From an uncultured Acidobacteriota bacterium (GTDB lineage Bacteria > Acidobacteriota > Vicinamibacteria > Vicinamibacterales > UBA2999): 64,000 nucleotides of DNA. The translations under genes and the position numbers were made by a program. The notes under the pieces were generated by a model, which had not been told where the DNA came from, searched no databases, and saw only the letters and a program-made list of their open reading frames with translations. The stretch is from NCBI GenBank assembly GCA_963707825.1, contig CAVPRP010000009.1:154602-218601 (forward strand), given 5' to 3'. Numbering within the stretch: the first letter of the stretch is position 1; every line of letters begins with the position of its first letter. Positions 4,559 to 62,718 of this stretch are shown one piece after another.

Positions 4559-4561
4559 GGA

Positions 4562-4667
4562 CCGGCAGACCGGCAACCGGCAGACGGCAGACGGCAGGCC
4601 AGGCCAAGACTCAAGACCCAAGACCCAAGACCCAAGACTCAAGACCGCTAGAGGCAGAAGGGCAGAC
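4562..4667 (+). repeat. Heptanucleotide tandem-repeat mosaic, locus 1 (GGCAGAC-type x4, then [C/T]CAAGAC x6)
   Basis: Direct reading: ccggcagac cggcaac cggcagac ggcagac ... ccaagac tcaagac ccaagac ccaagac ccaagac tcaagac. Confidence 0.9.
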
Positions 4668-7661: not shown

Positions 7662-9705
7662 ATCGGTCGAGCGCCTGTTCCAGGCGTGTGACTTCTCGGG
7701 CGACCGCTGCCGCGTCGCCGAGGCGAATCGATTCGGCCAGGCCCGGCAGTGGCTGGCCTTCGTACAACGAGTAGATGTTCCACCCGTAAATCACGTGACG
7801 ATACCACCGCGTGGCGGGCGGCTCGGATTCATCGAGCAATTGCTGCTCGAGATGCATCAGCGCGTCGTTCAGCGGACGGAGGCGAGCGGGATCGCTCGCG
7901 GCACTCGATTCCGGGCGGGCGAGACGCGCTTCGATGGCGGCGGCCCGACGAGCCGCATCGCCGGCCATGGCGCGAGCTTTCGACAGGTCCAGCGCGACCC
8001 GCTGGCGGCCGTTGTCGTCCACCGCCCACGTGCTCGCGGTGTCGATGAACTCCTGCATCTTCTGCGCGTAGTAGGAATAGCGGAACGGCAGCACCTCGGT
8101 CGAGGCCAGCCGCATCACCGTCAGCCCGAGCACGCGGGCCAGTGTCTGGCCGACCTTGAATCCCGGATCGACGTGCTTCTCGACGTACTGCCGTGTGTCG
8201 TAGTTCGAATGATACGGCCCGTAACTGCCCTCGAAGTCGAACTCCATCTGCATGGTCGGCAGGCCGAGGAAGTCCTGGAACGCGACGAAGTCGGCGCCGC
8301 TGCCGAGCGCGGCCAGGTCCACCTCGAACCCGTCCTGCCCGCGCCGGCGGCGTTCGGCTGGCTGGCGCTGCCATTCGGTGGCGCGCCACTCGTCGTAGAC
8401 CGAGCCCTTGCCATCGTAGTGCGGCACGTCGCGCGTCACCTGCACGAGGAAGTCCCGCAGCGACGGCGTGCCGCCACCGTCGAACCGTCCGCGCATCGAC
8501 AGATCGGTGTTGATGTAGACGATGGCCTTCTCGCGCAGCTCTTTTTGCAGCGCCTCGGCGTACTCGGTCGAGCCGATCAGCCCGAACTCCTCCGCGTCCC
8601 AGAACGCGAAGACGATCGTGCGCTCCGGGGTCCACCCCGATCGGGCGAGCGCGGCCAGGCCGCGCGCCACCTCGAACGTCGGGCTGAGTCCGGTGCCCGG
8701 GTCCATGCCGCCGAAGCTCCACGCGTCGTGATGCGTGCCCAGGACAATCCAACGGTCGGGGTCGCGGCCGGTGATCTTGCCGATGATGTTGCGAATGGGG
8801 CGGCGCCCGGCGTCCATCTGCACGTCGAGCTTGACCGTGACCGGCCCGGGGCCCAGGTGATACGTGAACGGCAAGGCACCCTGGAAGCCGGAGCCCGAGG
8901 GAACCACGGGGCCGCCCAACTTCGACAGGATCTTTGCGGCCTCGCGCCACGGCAGTACGACGGCGGGAATCTTCGGCAGGGTCGGTGCCGTTGCTGGATC
9001 GAGCGCCGGCGCATCGGGCGTCGCGCCGACGCCGGGCGTGAGCGGATCGCCGTGCCAGAACCAGCTGTACTTGCCGTTGCCGCTCTGCGACTGGAAGTCG
9101 GCGCGCCACGGCCCGTCCGGCCACGTCGCTCCGCGCGCGAACCCGTCATCGGCAGGGTCGGAGTAGATGATGATGCCGGCCGCGCCGGCCTGCTCCGCGG
9201 TGTGGAGCTTCACCGCGCGATGACTGCGGGCGTAGCGTGCGATGACGACCTTCCCGCGCACGTCGATGCCGGCCGCGGCCAGCCGCGCGTAGTCCGGCGG
9301 AAGACCGTAGTTCGCGTAGACCACCGGGCCGGTCACGGTTCCGGACGCGGAATAGGCCACGAACGCCGGACCGAGTTCCGGGTCGGCGCTATCGGGATCC
9401 CGTGCCAGGACCGGCTCGCGCACGGTCAACGACGCAGGCTCGGGCGACACGATGTCCACCTTGATCGAACGTGGGGTCGAGAGCTGGACGAGGTACTCGC
9501 GCACTTCGGTCTGCAGGCCCGCCTGTTCAAGCGCTTTCCGCACGCGTTCCGCCACTTCCATCGACCGCGGCGAGCCGGCGATGTGCGGGTGCTCGGTCAC
9601 CTGCTTGTGAATGGCGCTGATCGACTCGGTCGACACGCCGTTCAGGAAACGCTCCTCCATCGCCTGCGCCGCCGGAGAGCGCGGGGGCGTGGCCGCGGCG
9701 AGCAT
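7606..9705 (-). CDS. M28-family metallopeptidase with PA domain and transferrin-receptor-like dimerisation domain (glutamate carboxypeptidase II-like)
   Basis: Motifs: VVYANYGLPPDY..GKVVIARY (PA), GTHHDAWSFGG and FWDAEEFGLIGS (M28 zinc site), and a helical C-terminal dimerisation region. The start is placed at the first in-frame ATG (9705). The frame stays open upstream into the CocE/NonD gene. Confidence 0.8.
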   Translation of the reverse strand: MLAAATPPRSPAAQAMEERFLNGVSTESISAIHKQVTEHPHIAGSPRSMEVAERVRKALEQAGLQTEVREYLVQLSTPRSIKVDIVSPEPASLTVREPVLARDPDSADPELGPAFVAYSASGTVTGPVVYANYGLPPDYARLAAAGIDVRGKVVIARYARSHRAVKLHTAEQAGAAGIIIYSDPADDGFARGATWPDGPWRADFQSQSGNGKYSWFWHGDPLTPGVGATPDAPALDPATAPTLPKIPAVVLPWREAAKILSKLGGPVVPSGSGFQGALPFTYHLGPGPVTVKLDVQMDAGRRPIRNIIGKITGRDPDRWIVLGTHHDAWSFGGMDPGTGLSPTFEVARGLAALARSGWTPERTIVFAFWDAEEFGLIGSTEYAEALQKELREKAIVYINTDLSMRGRFDGGGTPSLRDFLVQVTRDVPHYDGKGSVYDEWRATEWQRQPAERRRRGQDGFEVDLAALGSGADFVAFQDFLGLPTMQMEFDFEGSYGPYHSNYDTRQYVEKHVDPGFKVGQTLARVLGLTVMRLASTEVLPFRYSYYAQKMQEFIDTASTWAVDDNGRQRVALDLSKARAMAGDAARRAAAIEARLARPESSAASDPARLRPLNDALMHLEQQLLDESEPPATRWYRHVIYGWNIYSLYEGQPLPGLAESIRLGDAAAVAREVTRLEQALDRFGRALEEIARLADTLEAR

Positions 9706-11823: not shown

Positions 11824-14567
11824 ATGCGGCGTTGCTTAGTTTTTCTATGCACGATCGTCGCGCTCGGAGCCATACCCTGGACCACCTCGGCCCAGCAGAC
11901 GACTGGTAGCATCCGCGGCGTCATCACCGATGAATCGGGCGCCGTCCTGCCCGGTGTCACCGTCACCCTGAAGGGACGCGCCGTCCCCGGCACTCCCACC
12001 ACCGTCAGCAACGAAACCGGCGTCTACCGGTTCCCGAACCTCACACCCGGCACCTACGACATCTCTGCGGAGTTGGCCGGCTTCACGACGACCGCGCAGA
12101 CCGGCATCCCGGTGGCGCTCGGCGGCACGGCCGAAGTCAACGTCCAGATGAAGCTGAGCACCCAGTCCGAGACCATCACGGTGACGGCGGAGTCGCCGGT
12201 GGTGGATGCGACCAGCACCGAAGTGTCCACGAACTACTCGCGTGAGTGGGTCGAGAACGCCCCGGTTCCCCGTTTCTCGTTCTTCGACCTGATCAACGCT
12301 GCACCAGGCGTCAGCGCCGCGACCTCGACGAGCTCGCGGTCGCAGTCGTTCGGGTCGGCGACCAACGAGAACCTCTACCTGATCGACGGCACGGACTTCA
12401 CCGCGCCGCTGAGCGGCGCGGCGTGGCCGTGGCCGAACACCGATGCGATCGAGGAAATCCAGGTGCTGTCGCTGGGCGCGCCCGCCGATTACGGCAACCT
12501 GGGAGGCGCGGTGTTCAACGTGGTGACCCGCCAGGGCAGCAACGCCTTCCATGGCGATGGCAACTTCTACTTCCAGGACCAGAACCTGACCGGTCGGAAC
12601 ACCGACGACGCCATGGACGGTGGCCTGCCCTACAACCGCGACGAGTACAAGGACACCACCTGGCAGCTCGGCGGGCCGGTCGTGCGCGACAAGTTCTGGT
12701 TCTTTGGTTCCTACCAGTACCAGCGCGACTACGCGTCGCAGCCCGGCACCGACCCGACCCAGCCGGCGAAGTTCACCGCGAAGCGCTACTTCTTCAAGTT
12801 GAACTACCAGATCAACCAGGACAACCGGCTGCAGTTCCAGCAGCACGACGACTTCTACCGCATTCCCGGCCGGGCGAGCGCGACCACGGCGCCCAGCACC
12901 ATTTCGGTGGAGAACGGCCACAACCCGTCGCCCGGGTTCCTCTGGTCGTCGGTCCTCAGCCCGACGACGGTGGTCGAGGCCCGTTACTCCGGCTTCTACG
13001 GCGTGGATCACGGCGATCCACTCGACGGTGGCCCACGCGTGGCGCGGCGCTACAACGACCTCGACACCGGCCAGATTACCGGCGGCATCTACTCGTGGTA
13101 CGACGGCAAGAGCCAGAAGACCAGCTTCTCCGGCCGGGTCACCAAGTATGCCGACTCGTTCATGGGCGGCAGCCACGACTTCAAGGTGGGCGTCCAGTAC
13201 AACAGCGGCCTGGGCGAGTACACCTACGGACTGAACGACTACATCTACACCTACGGCTCGACTCCGGCCTACGGCTACACCCAGGTGCCGTACACGCAGG
13301 GCGGCCGCATGAAGGCCATCGGCATCTATGCCGACGACACCTATCAGCTCGGGCGGGCGACCCTGAATCTGGGGCTGCGCTACGACGACAGCAAGGCCTA
13401 CTTCGCGGAGCAGGATATCCTCGATGCGAGCGGCAACCCCACCGGCCAGAAGTCGCGCGCCGTGGACGAGGTCTTCCGGTGGCAGGTGCTGTCGCCCCGC
13501 CTGGGTGTCACCTTCAAGCTGACCGACAGCGGCTCGTCAGCTGGTCAAGGCCCACTACGGCCGCTACTACCGGGGCATCGTGACCGGCGAGTTCGACAAC
13601 ACCACGCCGTCGATCAGCCCGAGGTACACGTTCGACGGCACCTTACAACTCCGCGGGCGTCCCGCAGGGCAAGGAGCTGTTCTCAGACACCTCGCAGCTG
13701 ACCGTGGATCCGGATCTGAAGAACCCCTACACCGACCAGTACATCCTGGCCTGGGAACAGCAGGCTGGCGCGGACGTCGGATTCTCAGTGAGCTACGTCC
13801 ACAAGGAGAGCGAGAGGCAGACCGCGTTCCCCGACATCGGCGGCACTTACCGGCTGGTGCCCTTCACCTCACCGGCGGGCGTCAACATCAGCGAGGTGTA
13901 TCAGCTGACGAGCGGCGCCTCATCGCGCCTGTTCCAGTTGCGGAACGACGACCGGATGCACTCGAAGTACAACGGCGTTGCGTTCGAAGTGAAGAAGCGG
14001 ATGTCACACCGCTGGCAGGCCAACTTCGGCCTCACGCTGTCGAAGTCGGAGGGCCGCCTCGGCTCGAGCTCGGCGCGCTCGACGCCGTTGACCACCCAGA
14101 CCAGCACCGCTGGCATCTTCGGTCAGAATCTGAACGACTTCATCAACAGCGACGGCCGGCTGCAAAGCGATCGCCCAGTCGTCCTGAAAACCCAGTTCGT
14201 CTACCAGATGGGCTGGGGATTGTTGGCCTCGTTCAACTTCCAGAGCCAGAGCGGCAAGCCGATCATCGAAGAGGCCCGCCTCTCGAGCGCCGTCACCGGC
14301 ATCCCCGGCACCAACCGCGCGGTCGCCAATTTCGTGGACGGCGAGCTGCGCACCGACACCTGGACGACCCTGGACGCGCGCCTCGAAAAGGCCTTCAACC
14401 TGGGCGGCTCGAGGGAACTGGCCGCCTTCGGTGACTTCCTGAACCTGTTCAACAGCGACGCCAACGAGAGTGTGCTCGACCGTCGTCCCGGCAACGTGAA
14501 CTACCTCGTGCCATCCCGCTTCATCGCCCCGCGGCGACTGATGCTGGGCGCGAAGATTCGGTTCTAG
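11824..14567 (+). pseudogene. TonB-dependent receptor with N-terminal carboxypeptidase-regulatory-like domain; two frame changes (~13540, ~13645)
   Basis: GGAGGA lies 7 nt before ATG 11824. Signal peptide, then QQTTGSIRGVITDESGAVLPGVTVTL. The C-terminus is ...RLMLGAKIRF (aromatic terminal residue). The frame-2 bridge reads LVKAHYGRYYRGIVTGEFDN. Confidence 0.8.
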
Positions 14568-14571
14568 GACG

Positions 14572-14872
14572 AGAAGGCAAAAGGCAAAAGGCAAAAGGCA
14601 AAAGAACGGCAGACGGCAACCGGCAGTCGGCAGACGTAGAGCCTGAAGCCTGAAGACAGAGACGCCCGGGGTTGCGACATACGCGGCCCCGGGCGATTCT
14701 CTGTACGGAAGGCAAAAAGGAAAAGGCAAAAGGCAGAAGGACCGGCAGCCGGCAGACGGAGGCAGAAGGCACAACGGCGGCCGACAGCTGGCCCTGGCCG
14801 CAAGCCCCAAGACTCAAGACCCAAGACCCAAGACCCAAGACCCAAGCTTCAGCGCAAGCCCCAAGACCTAAG
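14572..14872 (+). repeat. Heptanucleotide tandem-repeat mosaic, locus 2 (two sub-arrays split by a hairpin)
   Basis: AAGGCAA x4, GGCAGAC-type x4, GCCTGAA x2, then a hairpin. After it: AAGGCAA-type x4, CGGCAGC/GGCAGAC, [C/T]CAAGAC x6, and AAGCCCC-type units. Confidence 0.9.
14663..14695. terminator. GC hairpin between convergent genes (possible bidirectional terminator)
   Basis: CGCCCGGGG (14663-14671) pairs with CCCCGGGCG (14687-14695) around a 15-nt loop. It lies between stops at 14567 (+) and 14875 (-). There is no strong T-tract. Confidence 0.45.
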
Positions 14873-14874
14873 CC

Positions 14875-17145
14875 CTACTTGAGCGCCTCCAACTGCTGTC
14901 GTGCGGGCGCGAACTGTGGGTCGATCTCCAGCGCGCGGCGGAAGGCGGTCTCGGCTTCGGCGCGTTTGTTCTGTCGCGCCAGGGCCAGGCCGAGGTTGAA
15001 GGCATACTGCGCGTTCGTGCCGTCGCGCGTGTTGGCTTCACGAAACGCCTGCTCGCCGGCCGCGAGGTCGCCGTTCCCCGCGAGAATCATCCCCAGCGAG
15101 TTCCAGTACGACGCGGTGCCCGGATCGAGCTGCACCGCTTCGCGAAGCAGCCGCGCCGCGTCGGCCGCGCGGCCGAGGTCGCGGTACAGCTCGCCCAGCT
15201 TCACCCGCACCAGTGCATCCTTCGGGGCCAGCTGCGCCACGCGCTCGTAGGCGCGCACGGCGGCGACCGGGTCGTCCATCCGCCGCGCCACGTCGCCTTC
15301 GCGCTCGATCAGCCGCGGGTCATCGGGCGCCACCTTCAAGCCGCGCCGCACCGCCTCGAGCGCCAGGTTCGGCTTGCCATCCGCCAGATGCACTTCGGCC
15401 AGGCCGATGTAGGCGGCGGTGTAGGCCGGCAGCTTCTGCAACGCCCCTTCGTAGTGCGTCGCCGCCTCGCGCCAGCGCTTGAGGCCGACCAGCGCGCGCG
15501 CAGCGTAGTAGTGCGCCTCGAAGCTGTCGATGCCCCTCGCAAACAGCTGCTGGAACCCGGCGTAGCTGGCGGCGAACCGGCCTTCGCGCAGGTTGACCAG
15601 CCCCTCGCGCATCAGCGTGTTGACGATCTGGTACTCCTCGATCTTGTCCTTCGGATCGGCGCCGGACGCACGAGATGCCGCCGGTCCGGACGAACTGACG
15701 TAACCAAGCGCGCCCAGCTTCTCGAGCAGATCGGCGGGGACCGAGGCGGCGGCCGGCCCGGTGTCGCGCAGCAGGGCCTGCTCTTCACGGAGGCGCTGCT
15801 CGATGCCCGATCGATACGCGCGGGCGCGTTGCGGCTCCTTGTCGATCAGGTTCTGCCGCTCGTGGGGGTCCTGTCCCAGGTCGTACAACTCCGGACGCGG
15901 CGCGAGGATGTACTTCCATTGGCCGTCGCGGACCGCGCGCAGGTCGCTCCATCCGTAATGGACCAGCGGCACCAGCGACTCGGCAAACGTCGGCTCCTCG
16001 TCCTGCGGCGTGCCACGTAGCGCCCCGGCCAGCGATCGACCGGACACCTTCGGCGTCTTCGCCGCCAGCCCGAGCAGGTCGAGCACGGTCGGCATGACGT
16101 CAACGTTGCGCGTCACCGCCTTCAGCCTGGTGCCGGGCCTAATCCCGGGCCCGCGCATCAGCAGCGGCACGGCGAGCGTGGACTCGTAGACGAAGAAGCC
16201 GTGCACCGCTTCCTTGTGCTCGTCGAGGCCCTCGCCGTGATCGGACGTGACGATGAGGAGCGTGTCGTCGCGAAGCTTTGCCGACGCCAGGGCCGCGTCG
16301 AGCCGGCCCACCAGTTCGTCGGACCACGCCACTTCCCCGTCGTAGGGACGTCCGGCGTACTTCGTCGCGTATGGCTCCGGCGGTTCGTAGGGATCGTGCG
16401 GATCGTATAGATGGACCCACGCAAACCGCCGGTCCGCACCCGCGGCACCCAGCCACGCCGTCGCCTCCGCCACCGTGGCGTCGCCGCGCTTCTGAATCGT
16501 GTTGAGGAAGCGGGCATCGTCCTCGCCGATGTCGAACTTGTCCGAGTAGTCGGCGAACCCGCGCGCCAGCCCGGACTGCCGCGACAGGACGATCGACGAG
16601 ACGAACGCCGCGGTCTTGAACCCGTTCTGCTGGAGGATCTCCGCCAGCACCGGCACCTTGCCGCCGAGCGGCGGCGAGACGTTGTCACGAATGCCATGCT
16701 CGGCCGGATAGAGCCCGGTGAAGAGCGAAATGTGGGACGGCCGCGTCAGCGGCACGTGCACCGAAGCGTGTTCGGCCATCGCGCCTTCCGAGGCCAGGCG
16801 ATCCAGGTTCGGCGTCGCGACCGTCGTGTTGCCATAGACGCCGAGACGATCGGCCCGCAGCGTGTCGATGGTGACGATCACCACGTGCTTCGGCACGCGA
16901 GCCGCGGCGGGCGGGCCGGACGGCGCCGACGAGCCGCACGCGGCGACGCTCAGGAGGACAGCCACCACCGCGGCCGCAAGCAGGGGGACGCGGCTGGCGG
17001 CTCGGCTTGCGTCTTGAGTCTTGGGTCTTGGGTCTTGGGGCTGTGCCGGCTGCCGGCTGCCGGCTGCCGTTTTGCCTTCTGCCTTGTGCCTTTTGCCTTC
17101 TGTCTTCCGTCTGCCGTCTGCCGCCTGCCGTCTGCCGATACTCAC
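14875..17145 (-). CDS. Sulfatase-fold (alkaline-phosphatase superfamily) + TPR lipoprotein, paralog 1
   Basis: Motifs: IDTLRADRLGVYG, VPLTRPSHISLFTGLYPAEHGIRDN, SDHGEGLDEHKE, lipobox LLSVAAC, and a C-terminal TPR-like region. The only canonical start upstream of the lipobox is GTG 17145 (GTGA overlap with the upstream stop). That start would translate repeat locus 3. The alternative is CTG ~16983. Confidence 0.8.
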   Translation of the reverse strand: MSIGRRQAADGRRKTEGKRHKAEGKTAAGSRQPAQPQDPRPKTQDASRAASRVPLLAAAVVAVLLSVAACGSSAPSGPPAAARVPKHVVIVTIDTLRADRLGVYGNTTVATPNLDRLASEGAMAEHASVHVPLTRPSHISLFTGLYPAEHGIRDNVSPPLGGKVPVLAEILQQNGFKTAAFVSSIVLSRQSGLARGFADYSDKFDIGEDDARFLNTIQKRGDATVAEATAWLGAAGADRRFAWVHLYDPHDPYEPPEPYATKYAGRPYDGEVAWSDELVGRLDAALASAKLRDDTLLIVTSDHGEGLDEHKEAVHGFFVYESTLAVPLLMRGPGIRPGTRLKAVTRNVDVMPTVLDLLGLAAKTPKVSGRSLAGALRGTPQDEEPTFAESLVPLVHYGWSDLRAVRDGQWKYILAPRPELYDLGQDPHERQNLIDKEPQRARAYRSGIEQRLREEQALLRDTGPAAASVPADLLEKLGALGYVSSSGPAASRASGADPKDKIEEYQIVNTLMREGLVNLREGRFAASYAGFQQLFARGIDSFEAHYYAARALVGLKRWREAATHYEGALQKLPAYTAAYIGLAEVHLADGKPNLALEAVRRGLKVAPDDPRLIEREGDVARRMDDPVAAVRAYERVAQLAPKDALVRVKLGELYRDLGRAADAARLLREAVQLDPGTASYWNSLGMILAGNGDLAAGEQAFREANTRDGTNAQYAFNLGLALARQNKRAEAETAFRRALEIDPQFAPARQQLEALK
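17008..17138 (-). repeat. Heptanucleotide tandem-repeat mosaic, locus 3 (inverted relative to locus 2)
   Basis: Plus strand reads GTCTTG[A/G] x4, GGCTGCC x3, TTGCCTT-type x5 and GTCTGCC-type x4. These are the reverse complements of CCAAGAC, GGCAGCC, AAGGCAA and GGCAGAC. Confidence 0.9.
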
Positions 17146-43637: not shown

Positions 43638-43651
43638 GCGCACACTGTGAA

Positions 43652-45649
43652 TTGCCAAAGGCGCGCTTAACCCGCGCCACGGGGGACCCACCGGTGGGGC
43701 GCATCCAGGATTCACCTGGTAGAGGACTTCAAACCTCGAGCCCGTCAGCTAACCTCGTCGGCAGTTTTGGAGGCTTTCTGTCCAGCGCCGTTCCCCATCG
43801 CGCTCTCTTTCCCCTCACGCTCGCAGCCGTCGGCATCGTTTACGGAGACATCGGCACCAGTCCTCTGTATGCGATGCGCGAGTGCTTCTTCGGCTCGCAT
43901 TCCGTGCCGCCGACGCACGACAACGTGCTCGGTGTCCTCTCGCTGATCGTCTACGCACTGGTGATGGTCATCTCGATCAAGTACATCGCGCTCGTGATGC
44001 GCGCCGACAATCACGGGGAGGGCGGCATCCTCGCGCTTGCGGCGTTGCTGCCGGCGCGCCCCAACACCGGCGCGCCGCCGCCGATGCTGGTGCTGCTCGG
44101 GCTGTTCGGCGCCGCCCTGCTCTACGGGGACGGCATGATCACGCCCGCGATCACGGTGCTGAGCGCGGTGGAGGGCATGAAGGTCATCACGCCGCTCTTC
44201 GAGCCCTACATCGTGCCGGTCACCCTGGGCATCCTCGTCGGGGTCTTCGGCATCCAGCGGCACGGCACCGCCAGGGTGGGCCGGCTGTTCGGGCCGGTGA
44301 TGGTGGTCTGGTTCTTCACCATCGCGGCGCTTGGCTTCAGCGAGATGATGGCCGCCCCCGAAGTGCTCGGCGCCCTCGATCCACGCCATGCCGTGACCTT
44401 CTTCGCCGAGCACGGTCTGCACGGCGTGGCGGTGATGGGCGCGGTGTTCCTGGTGGTGACCGGAGGCGAAGCTCTCTATGCCGACATGGGTCACTTCGGC
44501 AAGAAGCCGATCCGCGTCGCGTGGTTCTCGCTGGTGTTGCCTGCCCTGCTGATCAACTACTTCGGGCAAGGCGCGCTGCTGCTGACGACACCGGGCGCCG
44601 CCGAGAACCCGTTCTTCCTGCTCGCGCCCGAATGGGCGGTGCTGCCGCTGGTGGCGCTCGCCACCGCCGCCGCGATCATCGCATCGCAGGCGCTGATCTC
44701 AGGCGTGTTCTCGCTCACGCGCCAGGCGATTCAGCTCGGCTACTGCCCGCGCCTCGACATCGACCACACCTCGTCCGCCGAGATCGGCCAGGTCTACGTG
44801 CCGCAGGCCAACTGGGCGCTGATGATCAGCACGATGGCCATCGTCATCGGCTTCGGCTCGTCGAGCGCGCTGGCTGCCGCCTACGGCATCGCGGTCACGC
44901 TGACGATGGTGATCACCGCGGTGTTGCTGCACGTGGTCGCCATCGAGCGGTGGGGCTGGCCCCGCCCGGTGGTGTTTGCGGTCACCGGCGTGTTCCTGAC
45001 CATCGACCTGGCGTTCTTCGGCGCCAACGCGCTGAAGATCACCCACGGCGGCTGGCTGCCGCTGGTGATTGGGGCCGCCCTGTTCACGATGATGACGACC
45101 TGGAAGACCGGCCGGCGCATTGTCGCCGAGCGCCTGACCTCGCGGGCCATCCCGATTTCGGCGTTCCTGGAGAGCGTCGAGCGGAAGCACCCGGCCCGGG
45201 TGTCGGGCACGGCGGTGTTCATGACCGCCCAGCCGCGCGGCACGCCGCCGGCGCTGGCGCACAACCTGCACCACAACAAGGTGCTGCACGAACGCGTGCT
45301 CACGCTGCTGGTGACGACCATGCCGGTGCCGTACGTGGAAGACGCCGATCGGCTGACGGTGCAACCACTGGGCCTCGGCGTGTTCGCGGTGACGATGCGA
45401 TACGGCTTCATGGAGGACGTGGACGTGCCCAACGATCTCCAGCGGTATGCTCCGGCCGGCCTGGTGCCGGAGGACGACACCACCTACTTCCTCGGCCGCG
45501 AGACGCTGCTCGTGACCGCGGCGCCCGGCATGGCCAAGTGGCGCGAGCAGCTCTTCGTGCTGATGGCGCGCAACGCCGGCCGGGCCGCCGGCTTCTTCCG
45601 GCTGCCGCCGGAGCGGGTCGTCGAACTCGGCGTCCAGGTCGAACTGTAG
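43652..45649 (+). CDS. kup: KUP/HAK/KT-family potassium transporter
   Basis: Motifs: LAAVGIVYGDIGTSPLYAMREC, GEGGILAL, and the long C-terminal cytoplasmic domain. The start is uncertain: only TTG 43652 is canonical, while GGAGG at 43768 is followed by a CTG. Confidence 0.85.
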   Translation: MPKARLTRATGDPPVGRIQDSPGRGLQTSSPSANLVGSFGGFLSSAVPHRALFPLTLAAVGIVYGDIGTSPLYAMRECFFGSHSVPPTHDNVLGVLSLIVYALVMVISIKYIALVMRADNHGEGGILALAALLPARPNTGAPPPMLVLLGLFGAALLYGDGMITPAITVLSAVEGMKVITPLFEPYIVPVTLGILVGVFGIQRHGTARVGRLFGPVMVVWFFTIAALGFSEMMAAPEVLGALDPRHAVTFFAEHGLHGVAVMGAVFLVVTGGEALYADMGHFGKKPIRVAWFSLVLPALLINYFGQGALLLTTPGAAENPFFLLAPEWAVLPLVALATAAAIIASQALISGVFSLTRQAIQLGYCPRLDIDHTSSAEIGQVYVPQANWALMISTMAIVIGFGSSSALAAAYGIAVTLTMVITAVLLHVVAIERWGWPRPVVFAVTGVFLTIDLAFFGANALKITHGGWLPLVIGAALFTMMTTWKTGRRIVAERLTSRAIPISAFLESVERKHPARVSGTAVFMTAQPRGTPPALAHNLHHNKVLHERVLTLLVTTMPVPYVEDADRLTVQPLGLGVFAVTMRYGFMEDVDVPNDLQRYAPAGLVPEDDTTYFLGRETLLVTAAPGMAKWREQLFVLMARNAGRAAGFFRLPPERVVELGVQVEL

Positions 45650-48547: not shown

Positions 48548-50425
48548 TCAGCGCAGCTGCGCGGCGCGCCCCTTGAGCGTCTCGGCCATCGCGCGCATGC
48601 GCGACTGATCGCGCCCGGTGGCAGTCGCCGCGTCGCGCTCGAGCTCACCGGCCAGGGTCACCAGTTCGGCCGCGGCCGGGGCCGCGCCGCGGTCGCTGCT
48701 GCGAATGCGATCGGCGCGGTCCAGCGTCGACGAAATGGCGCTCGCCCGGGCGTCCGGGATCGCCTTGCTGCGCTTCAGCTGATCGAGATAGGCGCGGGCC
48801 ACGACCACCGACGAAGGCCAGGTGACCTTCGGCTGCTGCTGCGAGTTGAACTCCTCCCACCGCACCAGCGCCGCGGCGTCGAGCTCGTTCTGCGACAGGT
48901 ACTGGCTCGGCAGCAGGCGGAAGATGTCGATGCCGCGGGCAATCTCGGCGCCGTAGAGGAAGCCGTTGTAGTAGTAGGTGGACCAGTAGCCGCCCGACAT
49001 CAGGTTGGCAGCGTCCACCGGTCCGCGATCGAAGATACGCGATCTCAACCGGGTTCGCCGAATCGGTGAAGTCGAAGATCGACACGCCGCCCTGGTACCA
49101 CGACTGCACCATGATGTCGCGCCCCGGCACCGGAATCAGCGAGCCGTTGTGCGCGACGCAGTTCTCCTGGTCGGTCTGCGGCGCCGGCATCTTGTAGTAG
49201 CCCTTGAACTGCAGCTTCTTGTCGACGATGTCGAAGATCGCGTCGGCGCCCCAGGTGATGGGATCGGTGGCGCGGCAGCGCGGCCGCGCGCCGCCGCCCC
49301 ACTCGTCGGTGAACACCACCTTGGTGCCGTCGTTGTTGAACGTCGCCGAGTGCCAGTACGCAGAAGCCCTTGTCGACGACGTGGTCGAGCCGCTTCGGGT
49401 TCATCGGGTCGGAGATGTCCATCAGCAGGCCGTTGCCCGAGCAGGCGCCGGCGGCAAGGCCGATGGTCGGGTAGACCGTGATGTCGTGGCACTGGTTGGT
49501 CATGCGCGAGGTCTGCGTGCCCTCGCCGTGGTTGCCGCCCTGCCACAGGCCCGCGAGGTTACCGGTCTTCTCGTCCATGAAGATGCGGGGACGGTTGACG
49601 ATCTTCGCGTTCTGGGGCGCGCCGAGCGGCACCTCGATCACGTCGATGCTGAAGAGCGCGGTGTTCGGATCCTCTTTCGGGTCGAGGCCCGAGCAGCCCT
49701 CGAGCTCCTCGCCCGGACGCACCGAGCTGGTGCCGGACCCATAGACGAACAGGTGCGACGGGTTCTTCGGATCGGGCACCAGCGTGTGGGTGTGCGAGCC
49801 GCGGCACGTCTGCACGGCCGCCACCTGGCGCGGCTTGCGGAGGTCGCTGATGTCGAAGATGCGGACGCCGCGGAAGCGATCCTTGCTGACCGTCTCGGTC
49901 ACGCCCTGCAGGCCGCAGTCGAGGCGCCCGCGCGTCTGTTCCACCGACATGAACAGCAGGTTGCCCCACACCGAGACGTCACCCTGCCCGCCGGGGCAGA
50001 CGATCGAGGTCATCAGGCGCGGTTTGCGGACGTTCTCGACGTCGTAGATGTTGAAGCCGTGATAGTTGCCGACCACCACGTGAGTGCCGAAGAAGGCGAG
50101 GTCGGAGTTCGTGAAGCCCGAGCCGCGCGGCGGCGGAGGGGGCGGCGTGCCTGGCTCCGGCGTGGGCTCGGGGGGCGCGCCCGGCGCGCGCTCGGGCGGC
50201 GTCGGCGACCCGGCCGGGGCTTCCGGATCGAAGAACCCCTCGGGCTTCGGCATGTTCGCCAGCAACTCCATGTTCATGCGCCGCAGTGCCCGCGTCGCGG
50301 AGCCCGGCCTTGAGGCCGATGCGGGGATCCTTGGGGTTCGGCGGCGCCTGCTGGGCGCTCGTCAATCCGACGACCGAGGCCACACCCACACTGATCGCAA
50401 AGATGGTGAAACGGTTGAGCTTCAT
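48548..50425 (-). pseudogene. LVIVD-repeat beta-propeller protein, paralog A; three frame changes (~50280, ~49362, ~49036)
   Basis: AGGAGA RBS and ATG 50425 (MKLNRFTIFAISVGVASVVGLTSAQQ). Collinear with the intact paralog at 57640-59583, for example GGQGDVSVWGNLLFMSVEQTRGR and FKGYYKMPAPQTDQENCVAHNGSLIP. Confidence 0.75.
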
Positions 50426-50467
50426 CGATCGGTCTCCTGAAACGAGTCGGGCGGATTGTACTCTGGT

Positions 50468-50674
50468 GGGCTTGAGGCTTGGGGCTTGGGGCTTGGGGCT
50501 TGGGGCTTGGGGCTTAGGACGTCTTGGGGCTTGGGGTCTTGGGTCTTGGGTCTTGGGTCTTGCGGTCTCCGGCTCCGGTCCCCGTCTGCCGTCTGCCGTG
50601 CTCTGCCTTTTGCCTTTTGCCTTTTGCCATCTGCCATCGGGTACCGGATCCCGGATACCGGATGCCGGATCCCG
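50468..50674 (-). repeat. Heptanucleotide tandem-repeat mosaic, locus 4 (about seven unit types)
   Basis: Plus strand reads GGCTTGG x7, GGTCTTG x4, CGGTCTC/CGGCTCC, GTCTGCC x2, CTTTTGC x3, CATCTGC x2 and CCGGAT[CAG] x4. Confidence 0.9.
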
Positions 50675-50675
50675 G

Positions 50676-51335
50676 TCAGTAGGTTTTTCCCCGCTGCCTT
50701 GCGATGTCGAACTTCGCGGTGTCGGCAATCGCCATCACCGCCATGACGCCGGCCTGCAGCGGGTCGGTGACGACCAGGTCTGCGGCTTCGCGCACGCTGC
50801 CGACCATGTTCAGCGAGATGACGAGCAGCCCCTGCCGCCGGATTTCGCGCACCGCCTCGGCGATCTCGCCGCCCATGATCGCGCCGGCCAGCACCAGGAT
50901 CTTCGCGCGCGGCAGGCGGGCCACCGCATGGACCGCCGCGGCCAGGGCCTGTTCGCCCACCAGCGGAATCGTGTCCACCGAGATCCGCTCGCCGCGGATG
51001 TTGTGCCGATCGGCTTCGCTGATCGCGCCCACCGCCACCTGCCCCACCTGCGCGCCACCGCCGATGATGATCACGCGCTTGCCGTAGATGGACAGCAGCG
51101 ACGGCTCGAGCGTCACCCGGTGCACCAGCGGCAGCGCGGTGAGGTCGCGCACCAGCGCCCCGAGATCGGCGCCGTCGCCGACCTCGATGGTCATCGTGGC
51201 GCGGCCGCCGGCAGCCGTCAGCGTCTGGATGCCCGAGATGTTCGCGTCGTGCGCGGCGAACACCGCCGCCACTCGCGACAGCACGCCGGGCACATCGTCG
51301 GCTTCGAGCAGCAGCGTGCGCGCCGGATCGGGCAT
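50676..51335 (-). CDS. ACT-domain protein with a C-terminal glycine-rich Rossmann-like domain, function unknown
   Basis: Start trimmed to ATG 51335 (MPDPARTLLLEADDVPGVLSRVAAVFAAHDANISG = ACT). C-terminal GKRVIIIGGGAQVGQVAVGA...LVLAGAIMGGEI. Confidence 0.6.
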   Translation of the reverse strand: MPDPARTLLLEADDVPGVLSRVAAVFAAHDANISGIQTLTAAGGRATMTIEVGDGADLGALVRDLTALPLVHRVTLEPSLLSIYGKRVIIIGGGAQVGQVAVGAISEADRHNIRGERISVDTIPLVGEQALAAAVHAVARLPRAKILVLAGAIMGGEIAEAVREIRRQGLLVISLNMVGSVREAADLVVTDPLQAGVMAVMAIADTAKFDIARQRGKTY

Positions 51336-57639: not shown

Positions 57640-59583
57640 CTAACGAAGCCGGGCGGCCCGGGCCTTGAGTGTGTCGGCGAGCGCCTTCAGACGCATCTGA
57701 TCGCGGCCCGACGCCGCAGCGGCGTCGGTCTCCAGCTGCGTCGCCAGGGTGCCGAGTTGATCGGCCGCGGCGCTGGCGCCGCGATCTTTCGGCGAGCGCA
57801 TCTGCTCGGCCCGGTCCATGGCCGTGACTACGGCCGCCGCCCGCTCCGGCAGGATACCCCTGGTGCGATTGAGCTGATCGACGTAGGCCTTGGCCACGAC
57901 CGCAGTCGCCGGCCAGGTCACCTTGGGCTGCTGCTGCGGATTGAACTCCTCGTGCCGCACGAGCATCGCGGCGTCGATCTCGTTCTGCGACAGGTAGTTG
58001 CTCGGCAGCAGGCGGAAGATGTCGATGCCGCGCGCGATTTCCGAGGCGTAGATGTTGCCGTTGTACCAGTAGGTGGACCAGTAACCGCCGGTGATGAGGT
58101 CCTTGGCGTCGAGCGGACCGCGGTCGAAGAACGCCACTTCGACCGGCGTGGCCGAGTCGGTGAAGTCGAACACCGACAGGCCGCCCTGATACCAGCCCTG
58201 CACCATGAGGTCGCGGCCCGGGATCGGAATCAGCGAGCCGTTGTGCGCCACGCAGTTCTCCTGGTCGGTCTGCGGCGCGGGCATCTTGTAGTAGCCCTTG
58301 AACTGCAGCTTCTTGTCGACGATGTCGAAGATCGCGTCAGCGCCCCAGTTCGGCAGGTCGGTCGCGCGGCAGCGCGGCCGCGTGCCACCGCCCCACTCGT
58401 CGGTGAAGATCACCTTGGTGCCATCGTTGTTGAACGTGGCCGAGTGCCAGTAGGCGAAGTTCTTGTCGTTCACCGCATCGAGCCGCTTGGGCTCCACCGG
58501 GTTCGAGATGTCCATCAGGATGCCGTTGCCCGAGCACGCGCCCGCGGCCAGCCCCACTTCGGGGAACACCGTGATGTCGTGGCACTGGTTGGTCCGGCTG
58601 GTGCTTTGCGTGCCGGGGCCGTGATCGCCGCCTTTCCAGAGTCCGGCGATGTTCCCGGTCTCGTCGGCGAAGATGCGCGGCCGGCTGATGATCTTCGCGG
58701 TCTGCGGCGCGGCGATCGGCACTTCGATCACGTCGATGCTGAAGAGGGCGGTGTTGCCGTCCTTCTCCGGCTCCTCGCCCGAGCAGCCGTCGAGCTCTTC
58801 ACCCGACCGCACCGAGCCGGTGCCCGAGCCGTAGATGTAGATCCGCGACTTGTCGTTCTTGTCCGGCACCAGCGTGTGGGTGTGCGAGCCGCGGCAGGTC
58901 TGGACCGCCGCCACCTGGCGGGGCTTGCGCATGTCGCTGATGTCGAAGATGCGGACGCCGCGGAAGCGTTCCTTGCTCACGGTGTCGCCGACGCCCTGCA
59001 CGCCGCAATCGATGCGGCCGCGGGTCTGCTCCACCGACATGAACAGCAGGTTGCCCCACACCGAGACGTCACCCTGCCCGCCGGGGCAGACCACCGAGGC
59101 AATCAGCTGCGGCTTCTTCGGGTTCTCGACGTCGTAGGTATTGAAGCCATGGAAGTTGCCGACCCACATGTGGGTGCCGGCAAACGCCATGTCGGAGTTC
59201 GCGAAGTCGAGACCGCCGGGCCCGCGAGGCGGCGCCGGCTTCGCGCCATCGGCCGAAGCGACGGGCGCGCCAGGCGCCGCGGTGGCAGCGGGAGCCGCCG
59301 GTGCGGCCGGTGCCGCGTCGGCGGCCGGCGGCGGCGTCCCCGGTGCCCGCTCGGGCGAGGACGGGTCGCCGGCGGGCTTCTTCGGATCGAAGAACCCATC
59401 GGGACGCGGCATCGTCGCCGTCAATTCCATGTTGCGCGCGGCCGTACCCGCATCTCGCAGCCCCGGCTTGAGGCCTATCCGCGGATCCTTGGGATCGGCC
59501 GGCGCCTGTTGCGCCGCTCCCACCAGCACCACACCGCCCAGCAGGGCGGCGACAGTCCACACGCGTGTCGTCACAGACTTCAT
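57640..59583 (-). CDS. LVIVD-repeat beta-propeller protein, paralog B (intact)
   Basis: ATG 59583 overlaps the DUF305 stop (ATGA). Signal peptide MKSVTTRVWTVAALLGGVVLVGAAQQ. Pro/Ala-rich linker, propeller blocks, and a helical C-terminal tail. Confidence 0.8.
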   Translation of the reverse strand: MKSVTTRVWTVAALLGGVVLVGAAQQAPADPKDPRIGLKPGLRDAGTAARNMELTATMPRPDGFFDPKKPAGDPSSPERAPGTPPPAADAAPAAPAAPAATAAPGAPVASADGAKPAPPRGPGGLDFANSDMAFAGTHMWVGNFHGFNTYDVENPKKPQLIASVVCPGGQGDVSVWGNLLFMSVEQTRGRIDCGVQGVGDTVSKERFRGVRIFDISDMRKPRQVAAVQTCRGSHTHTLVPDKNDKSRIYIYGSGTGSVRSGEELDGCSGEEPEKDGNTALFSIDVIEVPIAAPQTAKIISRPRIFADETGNIAGLWKGGDHGPGTQSTSRTNQCHDITVFPEVGLAAGACSGNGILMDISNPVEPKRLDAVNDKNFAYWHSATFNNDGTKVIFTDEWGGGTRPRCRATDLPNWGADAIFDIVDKKLQFKGYYKMPAPQTDQENCVAHNGSLIPIPGRDLMVQGWYQGGLSVFDFTDSATPVEVAFFDRGPLDAKDLITGGYWSTYWYNGNIYASEIARGIDIFRLLPSNYLSQNEIDAAMLVRHEEFNPQQQPKVTWPATAVVAKAYVDQLNRTRGILPERAAAVVTAMDRAEQMRSPKDRGASAAADQLGTLATQLETDAAAASGRDQMRLKALADTLKARAARLR

Positions 59584-60380: not shown

Positions 60381-61289
60381 CTAGAGGCCGGGGCCGGGAG
60401 GGGTGCGCCCGCCGCGCGGCTGCGGCGGGTTCTTGAGCAGGCGGTACTGGCTGATGCCCGCATTCACCTTGAATTCGATGCCCATGCGCCCAATCTCGGC
60501 GGTCGCCCTGGACGGATCGCCGGTGACGCCCGAGTCCTTGGCGCCGCCCCACGGCAGGATCTGCGCCTTGCGCACGCCGGCCGGGTAGACGTGAAGCATC
60601 TGCGAGGTGTCGCTGATCCCCGCATGGCTGCCGACGACGTCATCGTCGTATCCGAAGGCGGCCATCAGCCACGCCCGGTAGTTGTCGCGGCCGACGTTGT
60701 AGTAGTCGGTCAGGCCATAGACCCTGGTGCCGGCCTGGGCCCACTCCTCGTTCAGCTTGGCGGCCACTGCCGTCATCCCGGCCTGGTTGCCGCCGCTGTC
60801 GCCGATGAACAGGATCTCGGTGAAGCCGTGCGCCTTGAGGCTCCGCGCCGCGGCGTCGAGCAGCATGTCGTAGGCCGGCGACGGCAGGGTGATCGCGCCC
60901 TGGTTCTGGCGATCGGGATCACCCTCGGGCACGTACTGGATGACCGGCGCCACCAGCGCGTTTCCCAACCGGCGCGCCATCACGTTGGCGGCGTGAGTGA
61001 CGACGTAATTGTGCTTGCCGAGAACCATGTGGTACCCGTTCTTCTCGGTACCTCCGGTGGGGATGATGACCGTGGTCTTCCCCGCCTTCAGCGCGTCGCG
61101 CGTTTCTTCCCACGTCAGTTCGTCGATGAAGACGGTGTCAGGAGCGTGCGTCGGCGTCTTGCTCGCCGGAGCGGTCTCCACGGTGGGACGGCGTGGGCCT
61201 GCTGGCGGCGCTGGACGTGGGCCGCGGGCGCCACCGCCGGCCCCGGCGGGAGGGGCGGGCAACGGCCGGCACGGGCGGCTCGGCGCCAC
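60381..61289 (-). CDS. Creatininase-family amidohydrolase, paralog 1
   Basis: Motifs: ELTWEETRDALKAGKTTVIIPTGGTEKNGYHM, ILFIGDSGGNQ, and GSHAGISDTSQML. The start is uncertain (GTG 61289 or GTG ~61186). No signal peptide is visible. Confidence 0.75.
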   Translation of the reverse strand: MAPSRPCRPLPAPPAGAGGGARGPRPAPPAGPRRPTVETAPASKTPTHAPDTVFIDELTWEETRDALKAGKTTVIIPTGGTEKNGYHMVLGKHNYVVTHAANVMARRLGNALVAPVIQYVPEGDPDRQNQGAITLPSPAYDMLLDAAARSLKAHGFTEILFIGDSGGNQAGMTAVAAKLNEEWAQAGTRVYGLTDYYNVGRDNYRAWLMAAFGYDDDVVGSHAGISDTSQMLHVYPAGVRKAQILPWGGAKDSGVTGDPSRATAEIGRMGIEFKVNAGISQYRLLKNPPQPRGGRTPPGPGL

Positions 61290-62125
61290 TCAGCATCCGC
61301 TTGTACTGCGCCAGCGCCAGGTCCATCTTGATCTGCAGGAGCTGGCGGCCGATCTCGGGCGAAGACTTCGCCTGGTTGTTGCCGCTGACGCCGTTGTTCT
61401 CGTAGTCGTTGCCGACGAGTCGATCGCGGCGGATGTGCTGCGGCGCCACGAACAGCAACTCGGAGGTGTCGAGGATGTTGGCGTGGTTGCCCACCTGGGC
61501 CTCGGGCACGCCGAGGAACCTTCGCCGCCATCACTTCCTGATCGTGATGCGCCTTGGTGTAGTAGTCGTCCACCCAGTAGGCGGTGGCGCTGCCCTTCCA
61601 CAGGGTGTTCAGCTGCTCGGCCGCGGTGCGCATGCCGGTGCGGTTGCCGCCCGATTCACCCAGGAACACGACCTTGGTGAAGCCGCCGGCCTTGAGGCTG
61701 CGCCCGGCGTTGACCAGCAGATCGACAAAGCGTTCTTCGGGGAGTGTGATCGTGCCGGGCTTCCCCATGTGGCCGCCCACCGTCTCCCAGCTGCCCTCCG
61801 GCACATAGGTGACGACCGGCGCGACCAGCGTGCGGCCCATGCCGCGGGCAATCTTGTCGGCGGTGTAGGTCATGACGAACTTGTGCTCGCCATCGACCAT
61901 GTGCGGTCCCTTCTGTTCGGTGCCCGCGGTGCCGATGATGACAGTGGTCCACCCGTCCTTGATCAGGTCGCGGGTCTCGGCCCAGGTGAGCTCTTCGAGC
62001 ATCACGGTGTCGGGCGGTTTGCCGGAGGGCGCGGTGGCGGGCGCATCGGCGGGACGCTGCGCGGCCACGGTCATCGTGGTCAACAGGCAGGCGCCGAGAA
62101 AAGCTGACGGGACGCGGTAATTCAT
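61138..62125 (-). pseudogene. Creatininase-family amidohydrolase, paralog 2 (secreted); one frame change near 61524
   Basis: GGAGA RBS and ATG 62125. Signal peptide MNYRVPSAFLGACLLTTMTVAAQ. Motifs: ELTWAETRDLIKDGWTTVIIGTAGTEQKGPHM, VVFLGESGGNR, and after the shift FLGVPEAQVGNHANILDTSELLF. The 3' end is ambiguous. Confidence 0.7.
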
Positions 62126-62173
62126 GGGCAAGTCTCCGGATTTGACCCGACAAGAGTACACGAAGGGAGGGGA

Positions 62174-62274
62174 ACCGGCAGACGGCAACCGGCAGACGGC
62201 AGACGGCAGACGGCAGACGGGAGACGGGAGACGGGAGTCGGGAGTCGGGAGTCGGGAGTCGGGAGTCGGGAGAC
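62174..62274 (+). repeat. Heptanucleotide tandem-repeat mosaic, locus 5 (GGCAGAC x5, GGGAGAC x2-3, GGGAGTC x5)
   Basis: Direct reading: ccggcagac ggcaacc ggcagac x4, gggagac x2, gggagtc x5, gggagac. Confidence 0.9.
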
Positions 62275-62303
62275 CTTTTATCGGCAGCGCGGTCGTCTGG
62301 TTG

Positions 62304-62718
62304 CTAGGACGAGGGCGTGACGAGCACGATCTCGTCAACGACGATGGACCAGAGCAGGCCCGAGGAGCTCACCATCAAGTTGTACTGACGCGGGATCGTC
62401 CTCGAAGTTGAACGTGCCTTCGCCGACGCCGCGTTGGTCAACGACTTCCTGCAACGGGCGGCCGCTGACCGCGCTGTGCACGGTGAGATGGAACACGCCG
62501 TCGGGCCGACCCGGCTCGGGACGCGTTGCCCAGCGGATGCGGAACTTGCCGGAGTTGCTGACGAATCCAATGGTGTGATCGCCGCTGCCTTCCCACGCGC
62601 CGACCTGCTGCGGAATGCCGATCGGCGCGCGTGGCGGCGTCGTGGATCGACGACAGTCAACCCCGAGGGCGACTAAAGTCGCGACCGAGACGTACCACCA
62701 CAACTTTCGACGCGTCAT
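62304..62718 (-). pseudogene. Small hypothetical lipoprotein; one frame change near 62400
   Basis: ATG 62718 (MTRRKLWWYVSVATLVALGVDC, lipobox). The body reads ...GVFHLTVHSAVSG...GEGTFNFEDDP. The tail RQYNLMVSSSGLLWSIVVDEIVLVTPSS* is in a second frame. Confidence 0.45.

Follow-up and report, generated by a model that had tools for sequence, protein, structure and literature searches.

The locus 5 array and its spacer

The stretch of DNA analysed here (the window, 64,000 nucleotides, to which all coordinates refer unless a related genome is named) belongs to contig CAVPRP010000009.1 of an uncultured bacterium of the order Vicinamibacterales (Acidobacteriota). Two minus-strand genes of this window, a small gene and a creatininase-family gene downstream of it, are separated by a 178-bp spacer (62126-62303) that holds a tandem heptamer array, referred to below as locus 5. 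Read directly from the sequence, the array comprises 14 head-to-tail heptamers at 62177-62274 of the plus strand (98 bp, intergenic), and the order of its units from 62177 is GGCAGAC, GGCAACC, GGCAGAC x4, GGGAGAC x2, GGGAGTC x5 and GGGAGAC. Along the minus strand, the stop codon of the upstream gene is followed by 29 nt, the array, 51 nt and the ATG of the creatininase-family gene. The features of this region are the following.

62304-62717, minus strand: upstream small gene, ~137 aa, product secreted or lipoprotein-like, no Pfam family; stop codon TAG at 62304-62306
62275-62303, minus strand: distal 29-nt spacer, no counterpart in relatives; contains TATCGGCAG, which resembles the start of another array of the window (locus 3, below)
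62219-62274, plus strand: derived block of the array (GGGAGAC x2, GGGAGTC x5, GGGAGAC), unique to locus 5, a run of G3N4 units
62177-62218, plus strand: head block of the array (GGCAGAC, GGCAACC, GGCAGAC x4), homologous to the head of a composite element at other loci of the window
62126-62176, minus strand: proximal spacer, kept in relatives without the array; -10-like TACTCT at 62155-62160 and Shine-Dalgarno (SD) sequence GGAGAC at 62132-62137
61115-62125, minus strand: downstream creatininase-family gene ("paralog 2"), ATG at 62123-62125; Pfam PF02633 is assigned to its orthologue P0001

The array is real. Tandem Repeats Finder (TRF) reports it as a period-7 repeat with 96% matches, and it has the head-to-tail, high-identity copies beyond chance by which a simple sequence repeat or variable-number tandem repeat (VNTR) is recognized. 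Eight GGGAG(A/T)C dimers, with at most one mismatch allowed, were observed against 0.19 expected from dinucleotide-preserving shuffles, and all eight lie within the array. When the order of the 14 units was shuffled, five or fewer block boundaries were obtained in 0.3% of the trials and a summed Hamming distance between neighbours of seven or less in 0.04%. Because shuffled orders rarely reach these values, neither the contiguity of the blocks nor the one-substitution steps between them can be put down to chance. A lone GGGAGAC unit remains on the far side of the GGGAGTC block. The GGGAGAC and GGGAGTC units are found only at locus 5 within the window and are absent from 83 related loci. An earlier note on this DNA, made from the letters alone, had given the same unit composition and order, and direct reading of the 14 units agrees with it. 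It had placed the array at 62174-62274, of which the end stands and the start does not: the letters ACC at 62174-62176 belong to the flank GGGGAACC (62169-62176), the boundary of the proximal spacer, and this flank is kept in relatives without the array. The motif AACCGG at 62173-62178 overlaps the first array unit and matches the head of the array family described below.

Other repeat and RNA classes were also considered. A CRISPR (clustered regularly interspaced short palindromic repeats) array was rejected, as the units are 7 nt long and directly abutting with no spacers, compared with CRISPR repeats of ~24-48 nt and unique spacers; a tRNA-linked element was ruled out on anatomy. The Rfam search returned no match at E<=1 in 62050-62350, and none at the gathering threshold in the window except a c-di-AMP (ydaO/yuaA) riboswitch elsewhere, at 43643-43778 on the plus strand (76 bits, E = 7e-16), upstream of a 665-aa open reading frame (ORF).

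Both genes flanking locus 5 contain apparent frameshifts. Two compensating ones lie in creatininase paralog 2 at ~61140-61510, and an apparent 1-nt indel lies near 62392 in the upstream small gene (GATCCCGCGTCAG, compared with GATCCACGTCAG in the related genome L001). Relative to the intact orthologues, they may be either long-read indel errors or signs of decaying genes (pseudogenisation). These apparent frameshifts in both genes point to a probably error-prone long-read assembly, and the exact copy number of the array could therefore be off.

The proximal spacer also carries a candidate signal for transcription. A TAnnnT element (TAGGCT, TAGTCT, TACTCT or TATAGT) is kept 10-35 nt upstream of the creatininase ATG in L002-L024, and several genomes have TTGACA exactly 20 nt upstream of it. 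Together they form a candidate promoter of unusual spacing, and the position of the TAnnnT element in L018 and L020 suggests a leaderless mRNA. A scan of 61900-62500 with promoter and terminator consensus sequences, including that of sigma-70 promoters, found none.

Sister arrays in the window and sites in related genomes

Locus 5 does not stand by itself. TRF found period-7 arrays at five places in the window, namely 62177-62274 and the four listed here.

4560-4646, plus strand: locus 1, GACCGGCA/GACGGCA and then CCAAGAC blocks; begins 1 nt past the stop codon of the preceding gene (4556-4558); both neighbours are plus-strand genes, to which the array is in sense orientation
14574-14877, plus strand: locus 2, two composite arrays (14574-14655 and 14709-14877) around a hairpin at ~14657-14704, between convergent genes
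17006-17137, minus strand: locus 3, in a sulfatase-TPR gene, with the start codon of a GTGA overlap (17143-17145) on one side and the lipoprotein signal-peptide core on the other; open in frame
50468-50675, minus strand: locus 4, blocks of CCGGATN, AAGGCAA, GGCAGAC, CAAGACC and CAAGCCC

No gap separates locus 4 from the upstream stop codon (50676-50678), and 40 nt lie between its other end and the next ATG (50426-50428). Ten of the 11 arrays in the window with at least 3.5 copies have period 7. In 1.2 Mb of sequence from 80 Vicinamibacterales genomes it is again the commonest tandem period, with 43 arrays, whose units vary by genome. The units GGCAGAC, AAGGCAA, CGGCAGC, CCAAGAC and CAAGCCC recur among the window arrays; within these 64 kb, GGCAGAC-type units occur at all five loci, CCAAGAC at four and AAGGCAA at three. 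Multiple alignment of the five window loci and two arrays of the related genome L204 showed that they are copies of one composite element whose blocks follow a conserved order, with GGCAGAC-type units first and then AAGGCAA-type, CGGCAGC-type, CCAAGAC-type and CAAGCCC-type ones. Locus 5 has the head block of this element alone.

The resemblance extends to individual variants. A 27-nt segment of locus 1 (4571-4597) matches locus 5 (62183-62209) at 100%, the GGCAACC unit included; the matching string is GGCAACC-GGCAGAC-GGCAGAC followed by GGCAG. The string GGCAGAC-GGCAACC-GGCAG(A/T)C-GGCAGAC is present at locus 2 and in L204 as well, and head-like strings occur at 14607-14633 and, as the reverse complement, at 17097-17137. 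Likewise, 40 nt of locus 1 (4604-4643) match locus 2 (14807-14846) at 98%, including TCAAGAC. Independent slippage would not repeat the same two-substitution variant at the same position, and the head of locus 5 is therefore best regarded as a copy by descent. The right half, on the other hand, appears to have evolved in place, since its units are found nowhere else in the window or in the 83 related loci. The idea put forward in the earlier note, that the whole array arose by stepwise slippage of mutated units, thus holds for the right half, with its unique units, contiguous blocks and one-substitution steps, but not for the left half, whose string is common to loci 1, 2 and 5 and to a relative. 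For the same reason, the view of GGCAACC as a variant produced at locus 5 by local slippage had to be given up.

The arrays also share the way in which they are placed. At loci 1-4 the array starts 0-6 nt past the upstream stop codon and, where the next start codon lies outside the array, ends ~25-50 nt before it. Locus 5 starts 51 nt upstream of the ATG, abutting and halting at a ~50-nt segment that is common to all close relatives and carries the -10-like TAnnnT. These start and end positions, together with the conserved proximal segment, indicate that the arrays fill spacer DNA up to functional boundaries.

Gene strands around each array were fixed by codon-position GC and by orthologues. 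One strand is nearly T-free in all five arrays (1-5% at loci 1-4). The mRNA-sense strand is T-poor (1-5% T) at loci 1, 3 and 4 and A-poor (5% A) at locus 5, so that locus 5 is inverted relative to those three; the opposite orientation asserted earlier is borne out by this composition. At locus 2, both halves have the same strand polarity and the neighbouring genes converge, so the array is antisense to one of them. An orientation bias relative to transcription was not supported: the co-directional contexts (loci 1, 3, 4 and 5 and L082 4448-4512) divide into four sense and one antisense, which is not significant. A link to replication direction was also rejected, as loci 1 and 2 (unit on the plus strand) and locus 3 (unit on the minus strand) lie on the same side of the skew minimum; the cumulative GC skew of the window has a weak minimum near 44-46 kb and then rises. 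The T-poor strand leaves no stop codons in six frames and provides no ATG, GTG or TTG itself, and such arrays consequently yield long spurious ORFs and hide true start codons.

For the comparison with related genomes, 80 genome loci encoding relatives of the downstream protein were used, all of them from metagenome-assembled genomes (MAGs), most labelled Acidobacteriota or Vicinamibacterales. The closest genomes (L081, L082, L083 and L001) have 94-99% identity to the creatininase-family protein and about 87-92% identity in the flanking DNA. The locus 5 array is absent at this site in all four of them: BLAST homology to the window ends at 62304, the upstream stop, and resumes at 62171-62178. 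A check among close relatives had been proposed together with the slippage idea. It gave presence in the window and absence in four genomes, with identical arrays not seen, and the difference at locus 5 among the genomes compared is one of presence versus absence only, with no copy-number series. In place of the array, L001 and L083 have a 69-bp spacer with CCGGACACCGGATCC, and L081 has GGGGGAACCGGGATCCGATG and an unrelated insertion of ~950 bp. Both motifs look like remnants of one or two units of the family (CCGGATC), which suggests that the site probably went through arrays earlier. The family head starts with AACCGG at other places too, as in AACCGGCAGACGG of L204 and L205. The insertion in L081 (8994-9947) resembles the C-terminal part of a LysR-type substrate-binding domain and occupies the position that the array has in the window, with the stop codon of the small gene on one side and the conserved proximal segment on the other. 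The site looks like a hotspot of rearrangement. More distant genomes (L018, L020, L043, L063 and L078) have heptamer arrays of unrelated sequence at the same site upstream of the creatininase gene.

Differences in length were found at the sister loci. Locus 3 has no array in L205 (91% protein identity; 9095-9180), where a GTGA gene overlap is accompanied by a single seed, AACCGGCAGACGG, encoding TGRR; it measures 132 bp in the window and ~330 bp in L204 (96% protein identity), which has the same blocks in the same numbers and a second composite in addition. Around the conserved hairpin of locus 2, L204 has 137 bp of CAAG(A/C)CC-type units and the window 77 bp, and the units differ too. In L082, arrays of the same family surround a SnoaL gene, next to which the window has none. 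The near-identical genomes L001 (7111-7138) and L083 (~7111-7135) have four and three copies of AGGAACT, respectively, as well as small changes adjoining the array; the CCCCAAG array next to it is identical in both.

Several observations concern these sister loci and their surroundings. The locus 3 array lies within the 5' end of the sulfatase-TPR gene and, from the GTG at 17143-17145, reads in frame as VSIGRRQAADGRRKTEGK...VAVLLSVAAC. The L205 orthologue has no array (VTTGRRSYRPLALF...). In L204 (9573-9960) the doubled array is out of frame from a TTG start, and no canonical start codon follows downstream; the orthologues P0123, P0241 and P0243 have array-encoded hydrophilic N-terminal extensions of differing lengths. 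The GC-rich hairpin of locus 2 (ACAGAGACGCCCGGGG...CCCCGGGCG..TCTCTGT, 14657-14704) is kept in L204 (~12305-12350) amid changing arrays and, lying between convergent genes, is probably a bidirectional terminator. Beside locus 4 ends the first copy of a ~1.6 kb segmental duplication (48701-50274 and 57796-59433, 74-88% identity) that contains paralogous minus-strand genes.

Metagenome sequences were also screened. A scan for same-species variants of locus 5, made with a degenerate pattern derived from its conserved flank, gave no matches. Arrays of the GGCAGAC type are present in more than 120 metagenome contigs with 40-72% GC. In contigs of a termite-gut type (L088, L091, L096, L100, L108, L111-L113, L119-L129 and others; ~50% GC), GGCAGAC nearly always occurs in four copies (~30 bp); three of these arrays follow one another in L108 at intervals of ~215 bp. 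They look like a separate element of fixed length that shares the heptamer. L099, an unrelated contig of high GC, contains GTCTGCC x4, GACTGCC and GTCTCCC x3 at 988-1053, with the same step from GTCTGCC to GTCTCCC as locus 5. At 9350-9523 of L163, 16 copies of GAAGGCA precede seven units of the reverse-complement type (GTCTGCC/TTCTGCC), which together make a long imperfect inverted repeat.

Origin of the array and rival explanations

We consider it likely, with appreciable room for doubt, that locus 5 is a hypervariable heptanucleotide repeat and belongs, as one copy, to a dispersed family of composite arrays that is specific to this lineage and fills spacer DNA of no essential role. Copying from another array, by ectopic recombination or template switching, would have brought in or renewed the head of locus 5, and the shared boundary AACCGG may have offered microhomology for this step. 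A C-to-G change would then have made GGGAGAC, and an A-to-T change within that run GGGAGTC; replication slippage or unequal exchange presumably multiplied each new unit on the spot. The array would be tolerated because of its position, with the stop codon of the small gene on one side and, on the other, the conserved segment that holds the promoter and ribosome-binding site of the creatininase-family gene. On the best reading the array is unstable, and it is probably non-essential; a dedicated function is not needed in what we regard as the best explanation, and any effect on expression would be a by-product.

Several points weigh against this account. Length instability of locus 5 is deduced from its sister loci and from relatives at ~90% nucleotide identity. 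Slippage leaves both the preference for period 7 and the near-T-free strand unexplained, and these two properties could reflect a constraint or a dedicated mechanism. The order of variants shared between loci demands copying from one to another. Finally, the complementarity of the derived unit to the SD sequence and the predicted sequestration of the latter could be a sign of selection and not of neutrality.

The last of these points leads to the possibility, which we regard as unlikely, that the array is a cis-regulator of the creatininase-family gene tunable by copy number. If a minus-strand transcript spans the array, its GUCUCC(C)/GACUCC(C) units may act as tandem anti-SD sequences, reducing translation by base-pairing with the SD GGAGAC; a second route, in place of this one or besides it, would be a G-quadruplex (G4) formed by the G3N4 run on the template strand, which would impede read-through transcription from the upstream gene. 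The SD at 62132-62137 is indeed reverse-complementary, without mismatch, to GTCTCC, the complement of unit GGGAGAC. Partition-function folding of the transcript from the upstream stop to +33 predicted a mean SD-unpaired probability of 0.003 with the array, compared with 0.41 when the array was deleted, 0.62 when it was inverted, 0.5 in L001 and L081, and 0.28 +/- 0.14 when it was shuffled, and none of 100 shuffles was as low as 0.003. The eight consecutive G3N4 units (62219-62274; the plus strand is the template strand) fit the regular expression for a G4 motif. Precedents are available too: the G-rich heptamers of Xanthomonas and Nostoc form G4 in vitro and favour an upstream position on the non-coding strand, as is the case here (PMC4692102), and heptamer repeats in the 5' untranslated region of H. 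influenzae hmw tune expression via an RNA hairpin (PMC12721329). Nevertheless, a -10-like TAnnnT is found 25-35 nt upstream of the ATG in many relatives, some of which have TTGACA 20 nt further upstream, and this conserved element downstream of the array suggests that the gene has its own promoter and that the main transcript may not include the array. The folding result is a model prediction that holds only if the array is transcribed, and the predicted pairing with the SD closes a loop of ~130 nt. Moreover, close relatives do without the array, the creatininase-family gene may be a pseudogene, and same-site arrays in other genomes consist of unrelated units without a CUCC motif, on which ground a general anti-SD role for arrays at this site was rejected. 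A broader proposal, somewhat fainter still in our judgement, would make the arrays a self-propagating composite, copied in either orientation from spacer to spacer and exploited as a length-tunable switch, the sense orientation at locus 3 providing frame-dependent ON/OFF control of secreted proteins and the inverted orientation at locus 5 an anti-SD and G4 throttle of the creatininase-family gene by copy number.

It is likewise improbable that the composite array is a non-autonomous mobile element similar to miniature inverted-repeat transposable elements (MITE) or repetitive extragenic palindromic (REP) sequences, or else the product of a dedicated enzyme, such as a reverse transcriptase or a template-repeating polymerase, and was inserted here in inverted orientation. 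Such an origin would agree with a composite of conserved block order and shared variants at at least five loci in both orientations, with presence/absence differences among close relatives, with the second full composite next to the first in L204, and with the wide occurrence of GGCAGAC-type arrays in metagenome contigs. Inspection, however, showed neither terminal inverted repeats nor a target-site duplication, and the flanks GGGGAACC and CTTTTATC share nothing. The copies have no fixed length or ends and grade into seeds, such as the single AACCGGCAGACGG inside L205 coding sequence, and the units differ between genomes, unlike what a single template predicts; no candidate enzyme gene turned up beside any array, although the search was not systematic. 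The two neighbouring genes both seem to carry indel errors of a kind that is typical for uncorrected long reads, and this might suggest that the array is an artefact of sequencing or of long-read metagenome assembly. Such an artefact is very unlikely, as orthologous arrays with the same block order are present in the independent assembly L204, many short-read MAGs of the order have heptamer arrays, array-encoded N-terminal extensions occur in proteins called independently by JGI and NCBI, and ordered blocks of perfect heptamers are not what sequencing errors produce. Lastly, a mechanically called minus-strand ORF (61115-62338) crosses the array in frame with the creatininase ATG, and the sister array of locus 3 does sit within an N-terminal coding region. 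Even so, the chance that locus 5 encodes an N-terminal extension of the creatininase-family protein or a small repeat peptide is slighter than any of the above: the ORF begins at a TTG inside the upstream gene, no ATG, GTG or TTG occurs between the upstream stop and the array, and the orthologues begin at a conserved ATG (MNYR/MNHR) with GGAGAC ahead of it. The lack of A on one strand is enough to explain why the array is open in all frames.

Significance and comparison with known heptamer repeats

Heptamer arrays have been known for more than 30 years as an over-represented and unexplained class of bacterial repeats, with short tandemly repeated repetitive (STRR) sequences and the repeats of Xanthomonas/Nostoc and Beggiatoa as examples. 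On the best reading, locus 5 is a further case of this class, known in other phyla and newly seen in Acidobacteriota; no report of such arrays in Vicinamibacterales or Acidobacteria was found in the searchable literature. The class is thereby extended to soil Acidobacteriota (Vicinamibacterales). The arrays offer a readable series, which may be followed from a seed that is conserved, through a head copied from another part of the genome, to two successive point mutations, each amplified in place; orthologous sites in relatives show absence, presence and doubling. They may therefore serve as a good natural system for asking what favours a period of 7, by what route arrays reach new loci and whether expression is affected. 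On the practical side, such arrays misplace start codons, as at locus 3, and are fragile in assemblies.

The STRR heptanucleotide sequences of heterocystous cyanobacteria (Calothrix, Anabaena/Nostoc) were reportedly described by Mazel et al. in 1990. They resemble the present arrays in having 7-nt tandem units, with few unit types at many dispersed and mostly intergenic loci of one genome, and the five loci in 64 kb indeed have the same 7-nt units in tandem at many dispersed non-coding sites. Their hosts are cyanobacteria, whereas the present one belongs to Vicinamibacterales (Acidobacteriota, 68% GC), and the unit sequences are unrelated. In addition, the blocks here have a conserved order and form a composite of ~130-190 bp; to our knowledge, a conserved block order has not been described for STRR. 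Calothrix heptanucleotides are also mentioned in PMC4692102, which describes heptamers as the long simple-sequence repeat that is over-represented in many bacteria and cites a polymerase-footprint hypothesis proposed for this over-representation.

The arrays of Xanthomonas, which lie between the same genes in close relatives and vary there in both length and sequence (PMC4692102), are close in type to the derived block of locus 5. GGGAGTC and GGGAGAC are G3N4 units like GGGAATC of Xanthomonas and GGGGA(C/T)T of Nostoc (PMC4692102), and they are one substitution from GGGAATC. As with those G-rich repeats, locus 5 is intergenic, close upstream of a gene and G-rich on the non-coding strand, and its eight units exceed the four consecutive G3+ units that define the class. 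Unlike in Xanthomonas and Nostoc, a genome-wide G-rich family was not found: the G-rich unit occurs at one locus of the window, is absent from the 83 related loci and derives from GGCAGAC, which is not a G4 unit; there is no preference for four units, and the G4 is a prediction from the motif.

With the (ATCTTTC)n repeats of H. influenzae hmw1A/hmw2A (PMC12721329), locus 5 shares pyrimidine-rich sense-strand heptamers upstream of a coding sequence and, as in hmw, a predicted pairing of the array with a purine-rich segment downstream. The hmw array has a variable copy number, is transcribed and processed by RNase III, and controls an adhesin through phase variation and tuning (PMC12721329). Locus 5 differs from it in having a probable promoter downstream of the array and in the nature of the gene, which encodes a creatininase-family enzyme.

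The E. coli K1 O-acetyltransferase gene neuO is reported to carry AAGACTC heptanucleotide repeats in its 5' coding region (Deszo et al., 2005). NeuO is called phase-variable in PMC13001214. The likeness to neuO is confined to locus 3, where the array lies between the start codon and the gene body, is readable only in frame and gives a hydrophilic repeat; the unit TCAAGAC is moreover a rotation of AAGACTC. By analogy, the arrangement at locus 3 resembles frame-dependent switching of the neuO type. Locus 5, unlike neuO, lies outside any coding sequence.

Finally, the TAACTGA direct repeats of Beggiatoaceae, cyanobacteria and Bacteroidetes occur chiefly in intergenic DNA near the start codons of functionally unrelated genes, and a post-transcriptional role has been proposed, not shown, for them (PMC4679880). 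That family consists of a single unit common to several phyla, mostly in 2-6 copies, whereas the arrays described here are longer and are built from many lineage-specific units.

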